Assembly (NCBI GenBank): GCA_028713935.1
Contig: JAQTNI010000041.1
Span: forward strand, 1-10,468
Reading direction: 5' to 3'
DNA from: Candidatus Iainarchaeum sp.
GTDB lineage: Archaea; Iainarchaeota; Iainarchaeia; Iainarchaeales; GCA-2688035
Length of the DNA stretch: 10,468 bases
Made by a program: the position numbers and the translations under genes
Notes under the pieces: model-generated
Database searches by the model: none
The model's input: the letters and a program-made list of their open reading frames with translations, nothing else
What the model was told of the DNA's origin: nothing
Shown: one piece after another, positions 1,791-3,861 of the stretch
How the letters are laid out: each line of letters starts with the position of its first letter
Position numbering within the stretch: position 1 is the first letter of the stretch

Positions 1791-2918
1791 TTATTTTACT
1801 ACCAGGCCGACAAAAGAATTTCTTTTTGAAGAATGGCGTGGTACAGAACCGGAGTTTATTTCATAAAGCTTGACATGAGCCATGTTTGTCCAGGCGCTTA
1901 TCCAGGATGAAAAAACCAGTTCAATTATTATTCTTGGAACAATCAGCAAAATTGCCAAAATCGCAAAAAAAGAGGCAAAGCCAAAAATTGCCATTAGTGC
2001 GGCGTAACAAAGAGCAATTATAACCATGATAATCCCGAAAAGCAGGTTGAAAGCAATCGAATGAATGTATTTTCCCTGTGTTATTTCAATTGCCCTTCTA
2101 ATTATGCCAAAAGGGGTTTCATTTTCAAAAACAGCAATTGGGCCTATTACAACAAGATAAGGCGAAATCAGGAATAGGATTACAAAAAAAATGAACAACA
2201 AGGCAAGAAACATCAGCAAAAAGCCAACCAATGGAAGAATTGCTGAAGCGGCTGCTGTTCCCTGTGCAGCTGAAGCAACAAAAACAGGCAGCAGGTTTTG
2301 CAGCACAGAAGGCAAAGCAATCAAGGCAGGGGAAAAAATAATTACTGCCAGGATAAAAAGCAGTATCCCGACAAGAATTCTTGCGCCAAAAAGAGGAATG
2401 AATCTTTTTGCAGCGCTTGAAAAAGCATCTCCCAAATCCCCTTTTGCATTAAGAAACTGCCTTGCAAGAAAATAAGAAACAGCTTCAAAAAAAGAGGACA
2501 CAAAAACAGAAACAATTATGAAAACAGTTAGCAAGCCAAGAATTGCAATTATCAGTGCAGAAAAAATTGCGGGATTTGAAAGTGCGGTAACCAATTGCAA
2601 GCCAGAAGCCATTGCAGCGGGATTCTGGGCAAGCGCATCAAAAAGCAGTTTCAAAAGGTCAACACCCAAAACTCCGGAAGCCAAAAAAATTCCGGCCAAG
2701 CCAAAAACAACAAGCACTACCCCTGAAGCAATTGTCGCAAGGATAATGACAAGCAAAAAATAAAGAACCAAATAGCCATTCAGAGACTTCTTCAAAGAGT
2801 CAATTACTCCTTCAACATAAATTCCCATAAAAACCACAAATAATAACTGCAAACAACTATTTAAGAATTTCCAAGCATTGCCAAAAACCACGGTTTCAAA
2901 AAAAATAAAATTTTGCAA
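1791..2918 (-). CDS. Polytopic integral membrane protein, function unknown
   Basis: 375-aa ORF made almost entirely of long hydrophobic segments (roughly 9-10 predicted helices by eye). It has a short polar C-terminus. The listed start at 2918 is TTG. An ATG start at about 2828 (MGIYVEG...) is an alternative. Confidence 0.7.
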   Translation of the reverse strand: MQNFIFFETVVFGNAWKFLNSCLQLLFVVFMGIYVEGVIDSLKKSLNGYLVLYFLLVIILATIASGVVLVVFGLAGIFLASGVLGVDLLKLLFDALAQNPAAMASGLQLVTALSNPAIFSALIIAILGLLTVFIIVSVFVSSFFEAVSYFLARQFLNAKGDLGDAFSSAAKRFIPLFGARILVGILLFILAVIIFSPALIALPSVLQNLLPVFVASAAQGTAAASAILPLVGFLLMFLALLFIFFVILFLISPYLVVIGPIAVFENETPFGIIRRAIEITQGKYIHSIAFNLLFGIIMVIIALCYAALMAIFGFASFFAILAILLIVPRIIIELVFSSWISAWTNMAHVKLYEINSGSVPRHSSKRNSFVGLVVK

Positions 2919-2924
2919 AAAAAA

Positions 2925-3150
2925 GGGTCAGGCATCAGTTGAGCGTCTGCCCTTGCCTTGCCTGCGCTCTTGCGCATAAGAAAGAGCTGCGATTCTCCTC
3001 GGAATCTGGCTCCTGCGCACTTCACTGCTGCGCCTGTCAGAGCGCATTCTGGTGTTCACGCGAAAAGACGTTCCGGGAGAAACCCGCCTCTGGCGTTTGG
3101 AGATTCTTCTGTCAATGGGTTTTGGAATTCCAGCCATTTTTTCACCAATA
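2925..3150 (-). other. GC-rich island: candidate structured ncRNA, or a 69-aa Arg/Ser-rich basic protein gene (ORF 2928-3137)
   Basis: My hand count gives ~57% GC over 2941-3120 versus ~33% in flanking coding sequence. ORFs are open on both strands, as expected when AT-rich stop codons are scarce. Many GC-rich stems are possible (tgcgc/gcgca repeated; gattc/gaatc). On the minus strand a TATA-like tataaattaaata (rc of ~3168-3183) lies upstream. A GGTGA lies 4 nt before ATG 3137. A T8 run follows the tga. Confidence 0.4.
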
Positions 3151-3177
3151 ACAAATAACAGAGTCCCAGTATTTAAT

Positions 3178-3861
3178 TTATAGCTTTAATTTTTTTTTCA
3201 GTTTTTTCCAGATTTCAGAATGAATGTCTTCCTGTGGCCTTACAAAAAAAGAACCGTGCTTTTTCACTGCACAATCAATTGCAATCCACCTGTTCTTTTT
3301 TGCAAGCGAAGCATAAACTTTGCGCGTGCGCTCCAGATAAGCCGCGTCTGCCTCATGCAAATCTTTTTCTGAACCCTTCCTGTAATCCTCTTTCCTGTCC
3401 TGGCCAGCCATTAATTTTTGTGCCACTTCAGTCGGCATATTCAAAAAAACAACAGCATCAGCCCTTGGCATTCTCGATTCAAGGGATTCAACCCAGAAAA
3501 GGAATTTTTTTTGTTCGGAAGCCAGGGAAAACTTTGCTGTTTGATGCGCAATATTTGACTGGACATACCTGTTCATTACAAGAATTTTTCCAGCAGAAAC
3601 CTTTTCTTCAATTTCTTTTTTTATCTGGTACCTGTCAAGGGAATAAAGCAAAGCGCAAAATTCCGGAGCCAGGCTTTTGATTGGGCCGAATTCCCCCGAA
3701 AGGTGTTTTCCAGCCAAAGAGCCAAAAAAAGAGTCGTATCTTGGAAAAGAAAAAAGCTCGGCTTCAATTCCCAAAAACTGGAGCTTTTCAAAAAACAATT
3801 TTGTTTGAGTAGCCTTGCCGCTTGCATCAGTGCCTTCAAAAACAATAATAGCGCCTTTCAT
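3178..3861 (-). CDS. tmk: Thymidylate kinase (dTMP kinase)
   Basis: 227-aa ORF. N-terminal P-loop is IIVFEGTDASGKATQ. A DRY-type motif is present (SLDRYQ). Length and layout are typical of Tmk. Confidence 0.85.
   Translation of the reverse strand: MKGAIIVFEGTDASGKATQTKLFFEKLQFLGIEAELFSFPRYDSFFGSLAGKHLSGEFGPIKSLAPEFCALLYSLDRYQIKKEIEEKVSAGKILVMNRYVQSNIAHQTAKFSLASEQKKFLFWVESLESRMPRADAVVFLNMPTEVAQKLMAGQDRKEDYRKGSEKDLHEADAAYLERTRKVYASLAKKNRWIAIDCAVKKHGSFFVRPQEDIHSEIWKKLKKKLKL

Follow-up and report, generated by a model that had tools for sequence, protein, structure and literature searches.

Genes and features of the locus

The window, by which we mean the whole stretch of DNA analysed here (10,468 nt), is an entire contig (C41) of a 1.23-Mb genome that is distributed over 72 contigs, is 93.7% complete and has 39.7% GC. 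A GC-rich island lies in it between a dTMP kinase gene (tmk) and a gene for a membrane protein, both of them on the minus strand. The features of the locus are as follows.

1791–2828, minus strand: membrane protein gene, downstream of the island; likely start ATG 2828, preceded by a conserved TTAAATA box of its own (about 2858–2864)
2898–2905, minus strand: second T8 run, part of a direct repeat TTTTTTTTG[C/A]AA shared with 2913–2924
2917–2924, minus strand: T8 run, 3 nt past the stop of the small ORF; aligns with a T9 run after the tmk stop in a genome of the same genus (G001)
2925–3166, minus strand: lineage-specific insert of 242 nt (52.9% GC), between the 11 stop-proximal nt of tmk and the putative T-run terminator
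2928–3137, minus strand: 69-aa ORF (P0001), coordinates including the TGA stop; 18 Arg, 9 Ser, pI 12.0, net charge about +15
3142–3146, minus strand: Shine–Dalgarno sequence GGTGA; GGTG starts at –9 from the ATG
3170–3183, minus strand: TATA-like CTATAAATTAAATA, overlapping the tmk stop codon (3178–3180); possible promoter of the ORF's own
3178–3861, minus strand: dTMP kinase gene (tmk), upstream of the island; Pfam PF02223 at 6.4e-22, NCBIfam dTMP kinase

Oligo-T runs act as transcription terminators in archaea, and the run at 2917–2924 may well have this role. The membrane gene has no Pfam family match. Called mechanically, its frame extends over 1791–2918 and begins at a TTG inside the spacer (window 2826–2918). 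Both the protein start MGIYV.. and the TTAAATA promoter box are conserved in G001 and in a second genome of the genus, G002. Thus, the real start is most likely ATG 2828, which would leave the membrane gene clear of the island. Of the 18 family genomes with a tmk match, at least 12 have a membrane gene of 300–430 aa on the same strand about 10–70 nt after tmk. The succession of tmk and a multi-pass membrane protein of this size without a Pfam family is a conserved pair across the family (loci L078–L092).

Base composition of the island

The original prediction, made from the letters of the window, put the GC content of the island at about 57% over 2941–3120, and our measurement agrees with it (0.572; 0.540 over 2925–3150). 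The same prediction set the adjacent coding sequence at about one-third GC, which proved too low: both neighbours are at about 40% (tmk at 3178–3861, 0.405; membrane gene, 0.394), close to the whole window (0.391) and the genome (0.397). The 150-nt GC peak of the island reaches 0.593, near the top of the 99 islands of at least 0.54 that we found in the genome. Since windows at or above 0.54 GC make up 0.25% of the genome, the island is a real compositional outlier.

The structured-RNA idea started from the premise that such islands in AT-rich archaea are usually stable RNAs. This premise fails in the present genome, where 72 of the 99 islands lie inside ORFs of at least 150 aa and few correspond to known RNAs. 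Among the 27 islands outside long ORFs, those with Rfam matches are rRNA, tRNA and SRP islands only, while several others are genes for small basic proteins, such as L34e-like and L19e-like ones. Further GC islands outside long ORFs and without an Rfam match are located at C17:2041–2216, C11:2403–2602, C12:2502–2784, C9:28759–28955 and C24:6490–6642. The first of these contains a 56-aa Arg/Lys-rich ORF with a coding score of –6.05 (for the model, see below) and resembles the island studied here.

A 242-nt insertion specific to one lineage

Each of the two flanking genes aligns to a single contig of G001 (about 80% nucleotide identity) and of G002 (about 70%). The gap between the flank matches is 55–62 nt in these two genomes versus 313–380 nt here. 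The alignment pairs the tmk stop codon, TAA here, with a homologous TGA in both G001 and G002. With G001 it extends over the 11 nt past the stop and resumes at the T-run plus GAA. The insert is located between these 11 nt and the T-run, which in G001 comes directly after tmk. An alignment of homologous intergenic regions had been proposed earlier as a way of setting covariation against codon-wise conservation; we carried out the comparison of homologous spacers, and those of G001 and G002 turned out to lack the island. The small ORF was likewise absent from the spacers between tmk and the membrane gene in the family genomes examined. As congeners and family are without the insert, it was, by parsimony, gained in the lineage of this species.

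A search of sequencing runs traced nearly identical DNA to landfill metagenomes; there was no RNA run among the listed holders of the insert. Contigs from three runs, assembled independently, bridge the insert. In a freshwater run from a different study (X4), a 151-nt contig spans 3005–3160 at about 97% identity. The bridged junctions and the X4 sequence together indicate that the insert is not a misassembly. The X4 relative (about 97% identical, at low depth) was also seen at window positions 2768–2918. Its presence in a freshwater metagenome means that the species is not confined to landfill.

We also considered de novo birth of the ORF from native non-coding DNA. The spacers of the outgroups, of about 55–62 nt, do not contain the 242 nt, and no native source was found. 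With no corresponding DNA in the outgroups, we rejected an origin of the ORF de novo from a native spacer that could be aligned.

Translation signals and putative transcription signals of the 69-aa ORF

The original prediction described the minus strand of the island as framed by a TATA-like box and a T8 run, and pointed to GGTGA, AAAA and an ATG leading into a 69-aa ORF with roughly 18 Arg. All these elements are present, with CTATAAATTAAATA at 3183–3170, the T8 run at 2924–2917, GGTGA at 3146–3142 followed by AAAA, and the ATG at 3137–3135.

The distance between GGTG and the ATG is the one preferred in this genome. Among 892 crude gene starts, the modal position of GGTG upstream of the start is –9 (37 cases), where it is about 60-fold over background; anywhere between –15 and –4 the motif accompanies 11.4% of the starts versus 0.8% in a control window. 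The 17-nt start context GGTGAAAAAATGGCTGG of the ORF (within window 3126–3151) is identical to that of an unrelated 368-aa gene on the minus strand of contig C45. When 195 genomes of the order were searched by blastn, no copy of the insert was found and the matches were 20–57 nt only. In 19 other genomes of the order there were weak matches, all of them to window 3105–3158; the two that were examined are translation-start contexts of other genes (L40e and HMG-CoA synthase). As these two fall on the starts of other genes, they do not represent homologs; rather, the start region of the ORF resembles the typical start of the group. The shared GGTGAAAAAATGGCTGG and the L40e and HMG-CoA synthase matches point to a strongly stereotyped context of Shine–Dalgarno sequence, spacer, ATG and GCT in this group.

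The hexamers TTAAAT, TAAATA and TTTAAA peak at –36 to –28 from ATGs genome-wide, and the motifs in front of the ORF start at –39 and –45. The equivalent of the TATA-like site in G001 is not TATA-like. A scan for sigma-70 promoters and hairpin terminators, which is not applicable to archaea, gave nothing useful.

Coding properties of the ORF

In the frame of the ORF there are 18 arginine-type triplets (CGN, AGR), versus 6 and 5 in the remaining phases (p about 0.005, in a post hoc test made once the ORF had drawn attention). The codon-position base bias of the ORF lies between that of real genes and that of RNA genes (chi-square 10.6). We then scored the ORF with a native 3-periodic Markov model trained on 901 long ORFs. 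Its frame ranks first of the six. The absolute score of –5.3 is nevertheless exceeded by 99% of the 70-codon chunks from real genes (mean +11.9) and equals the best-of-six range for chunks of SRP RNA, RNase P RNA and rRNA, while real small basic proteins of this genome (L34e-like, L19e-like) score +15 to +17 under the same model.

In the X4 relative, one 151-nt contig at a depth of 2.4 shows 5 substitutions over 3005–3160 and a single indel, a 6-nt deletion at 3096–3101. The deletion removes exactly codons S13 and K14.

Native codon usage predicts a GC content of 0.505 for this peptide; 0.556 is observed, and the genome mean is 0.40. The amino-acid make-up therefore explains about two-thirds of the GC excess over 40%. 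The residual is seen as a GC3 of 0.55 and a preference for CGC (7 of the 18 Arg codons versus 12% natively). Thus, the high GC is due mainly to codons for Arg, Ser, Gly, Pro and Ala, plus the unusual CGC preference.

The original prediction had further remarked that ORFs are open on both strands of the island. Several frames are indeed open, but this is nothing unusual at such a composition: in dinucleotide shuffles of the island a given frame is open in 20% of cases, and some frame of at least 69 codons is present in 78%. The plus-strand ORFs had no Pfam or PHROGs match.

Comparison with structured RNAs

The local GC stems listed in the original prediction are present in the island. The minus strand has three copies of GCGCAG (at 3033, 3018 and 2967), there are two TGCGCA palindromes (at 2971 and 3014), and a nested GAGC..GATTC / GAATC..GCTC hairpin is found at 2984–3012. 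An Rfam scan had been suggested as the check, and we ran it with Rfam 15 (4227 models) at gathering scores and at E ≤ 10. At gathering scores only three tRNAs were detected in the window. At E ≤ 10 the region 2780–3300 yielded mir-266 (E 0.91) and the leu-phe leader (E 7), both at chance level, and no match fell on the island, leaving the structured-RNA reading unsupported. Elsewhere in the window, a 156-nt tRNA reported by Rfam at 1333–1488 (45.5 bits) is absent from the ARAGORN output, which suggests that this tRNA contains an intron.

Particular RNA classes were also rejected. The models for SRP RNA (RF01857, gathering score 96.5 bits) and RNase P RNA (RF00373) do not match the island. The genome copy of the former is located at C26:12450–12724 (123.8 bits), and the best genome match of the latter at C23:18151–18419 (80 bits, E 8e-23), which refutes an earlier hint that the island might supply the RNase P RNA. 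The score of the C23 candidate is just below the Rfam gathering score of 84, and annotation at gathering thresholds would thus miss this locus. C/D box sRNAs need a C box (RUGAUGA) and a D box (CUGA) near their ends. No C box RTGATGA was found on either strand of 2900–3190, so that the few CTGA sites have no C-box partner.

We compared the folding energy of the island with that of dinucleotide shuffles and observed no excess (z –0.47 for the minus strand, +0.09 for the plus strand and +0.07 for the whole insert), which argues against a structured stable RNA in general. The genome's own controls gave z –4.34 for the RNase P RNA candidate at C23 and –1.95 for SRP RNA in the same test.

Another candidate is a novel non-coding RNA restricted to this species. 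It could be read off the minus strand, with the TATA-like box and the T8 run as its borders, or off the plus strand, and it would account for the promoter-like and terminator-like motifs that flank the island, for its many local stems, for a GC content that resembles the stable RNAs of this genome and for an ORF coding score within the range of RNA genes. We nevertheless consider it improbable. Neither covariance models nor folding energies single the island out as they do the RNase P and SRP RNAs, which have been located elsewhere; the C/D box architecture is missing; and a core RNA would not be missing from congeners, as the insert is. Moreover, a Shine–Dalgarno sequence, an ATG and Arg triplets in phase are not needed by an RNA gene. 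The two readings that the original prediction left side by side have therefore parted: the structured RNA lost ground, whereas the Arg/Ser-rich micro-protein gained from the spacing of the Shine–Dalgarno sequence, the in-frame Arg triplets, the codon-aligned indel and the GC content contributed by amino acids.

Searches for relatives of the insert and its product

At the protein level, the ORF had no match in Pfam, NCBIfam, PHROGs, PADLOC or PDB sequences (neither a family nor a chain at E ≤ 1 or E ≤ 10). Known families of small basic proteins, both ribosomal and chromatin ones, were rejected as there was no Pfam, NCBIfam or PDB profile match. A word-indexed search of 5.8 billion clustered proteins and a full HMMER search of 1.84 billion representative proteins each returned the query itself only. 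A tblastn-type search of the genomes of 60 relatives gave just two matches, both at chance level (E 0.05 and 0.12). The ESM Atlas model of the protein is of low confidence (pLDDT 0.48, pTM 0.16), and a feature search of the same resource gave only chance-level matches (0.90) to unnamed clusters. Scans of metagenome, viral and genome contigs with protein patterns confirmed nothing.

At the DNA level, the genome contains one copy of the insert, and no source was found there in any frame (blastn, blastn-short, nhmmer, six-frame tblastn). Phage and plasmid records contained no match to it by blastn, and genome and viral contigs gave no match to exact 23-nt patterns. Scanning metagenomes with tmk for close carriers of the island gave best matches of at most 42% identity, which were of no use.

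A clean, small insertion in a spacer, with a T8..T8 direct repeat at one end, could in principle be a small mobile element, MITE-like or a structured repeat, that contains an ORF by chance. Such elements are recognised by multiple copies, terminal inverted repeats and target-site duplication. The insert is present once, its termini carry no inverted repeats besides A/T runs, and the T8 repeat lies at one end. As there is also no copy in the 195 genomes of the order or in the phage, plasmid and viral collections, we regard a mobile element as very unlikely.

The same lack of relatives, together with the absence from congeners, would be expected if foreign or filler DNA had simply been fixed in the spacer, with an ORF and start signals that are leftovers or chance and a product that is irrelevant. 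The native coding score, which is the same as that of non-coding GC-rich RNA genes, and the frequency of open frames at this composition (20% per frame in shuffles) fit such an inert insert as well. Against it, GGTGA is placed at the exact modal distance from an ATG whose frame runs through the entire GC-rich core, the Arg triplets are in phase (18 versus 6 and 5), the X4 deletion is aligned with codons, and the insert has been kept at about 97% identity in a second habitat. On balance an inert insert appears possible but somewhat unlikely.

Discussion

We conclude, with moderate confidence and from sequence comparisons, that the GC-rich island is probably a species-restricted orphan small gene, a predicted ORF carried by a 242-nt insertion. 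What we find is an intact ORF with a Shine–Dalgarno sequence and an ATG that has no homolog outside the species, being present only in this genome and in the relative at about 97% identity, as is typical of an orphan gene. Most likely the ORF is a fairly ordinary lineage-specific gene of this known kind.

We propose the following course of events. A 242-nt piece of DNA entered between the stop codon of tmk and its putative oligo-T terminator, in the lineage of this species only. The insert would carry one translatable gene on the minus strand, consisting of the Shine–Dalgarno sequence GGTGA, ATG, 69 codons and TGA, with the old T-run behind it. This gene may be transcribed in either of two ways. 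The first is read-through from tmk, which is plausible since the 40 nt from the tmk stop to the ATG contain no T-run. In the second, transcription would start from the TATA-like box overlapping the tmk stop, giving a leader of 7–15 nt. Translation would then proceed from the ATG led by the Shine–Dalgarno sequence, and the transcript would end at the former tmk T-run. The predicted product is very basic (pI 12, 26% Arg) and Ser-rich, with RS-like stretches and no hydrophobic core, and is probably disordered. If it is functional, we infer that it would most likely bind RNA, DNA or ribosomes non-specifically. What the sequences show directly is the insertion with its polarity, the translation signals, the in-frame Arg periodicity and the lack of relatives; transcription, translation and any role of the product are predictions.

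The non-native coding score, the missing relatives and the unconfident structural model are what an orphan gene of recent or foreign origin would show; to the same degree they make selection on the ORF harder to argue.

According to a published survey (PMC11293555, Vakirlis & Kupczok 2024), species-specific orphan genes (SSOGs) make less use of optimal codons and are more disordered. The present ORF resembles SSOGs and ORFans (PMC11293555; review PMC12315717) in having no homolog outside the species and in being absent at the orthologous site of outgroups. It is also short, uses native optimal codons poorly, is predicted to be disordered and has a high isoelectric point. There are differences, too. 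Here the outgroups lack the DNA itself and not only the gene; the GC of SSOGs on average matches that of the genome, while the ORF lies above genome GC; and the host is a DPANN archaeon, not a gut bacterium.

Archaeal small basic ribosomal proteins such as L34e, L19e and L40e are similar to the predicted product in being small and Arg/Lys-rich, with genes that are locally GC-rich in an AT-rich genome, and the start context of the ORF, led by its Shine–Dalgarno sequence, resembles that of L40e of relatives. The ORF differs from them in lacking a Pfam, NCBIfam or PDB match and conservation within the genus, and in its coding score (–5.3 versus +15 to +17 for the L34e-like and L19e-like genes). 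The archaeal SRP RNA (RF01857) and RNase P RNA (RF00373) share with the island a length of about 250–300 nt and GC enrichment relative to the genome. Unlike them, the island has no covariance-model match and no excess folding stability, and both RNAs are encoded elsewhere.

In a bolder version of the orphan-gene interpretation, which we hold to be quite unlikely, we would be looking at an early stage of a newly born or captured gene, in which Arg-rich coding DNA had come to lie between a stop codon and its terminator and thereby gained transcription at no cost. The ORF would then belong to a recurrent class of Arg-rich orphans, residing on GC-rich inserts in reduced DPANN and CPR genomes, and the class might have a shared unsampled source (e.g. 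viruses) or a shared role (RNA-binding or as an anti-viral peptide).

The analysis removes a false lead, as the island is neither RNase P RNA nor SRP RNA nor another core RNA. It also calls for caution with AT-rich genomes, in which a GC island can mark Arg-rich coding rather than a stable RNA. For this DPANN archaeon the locus represents a clean, polarised novelty in gene content, with a predicted orphan ORF placed between a stop codon and a putative terminator, and such cases bear on the debate over the origin of prokaryotic ORFans (PMC11293555, PMC12315717).
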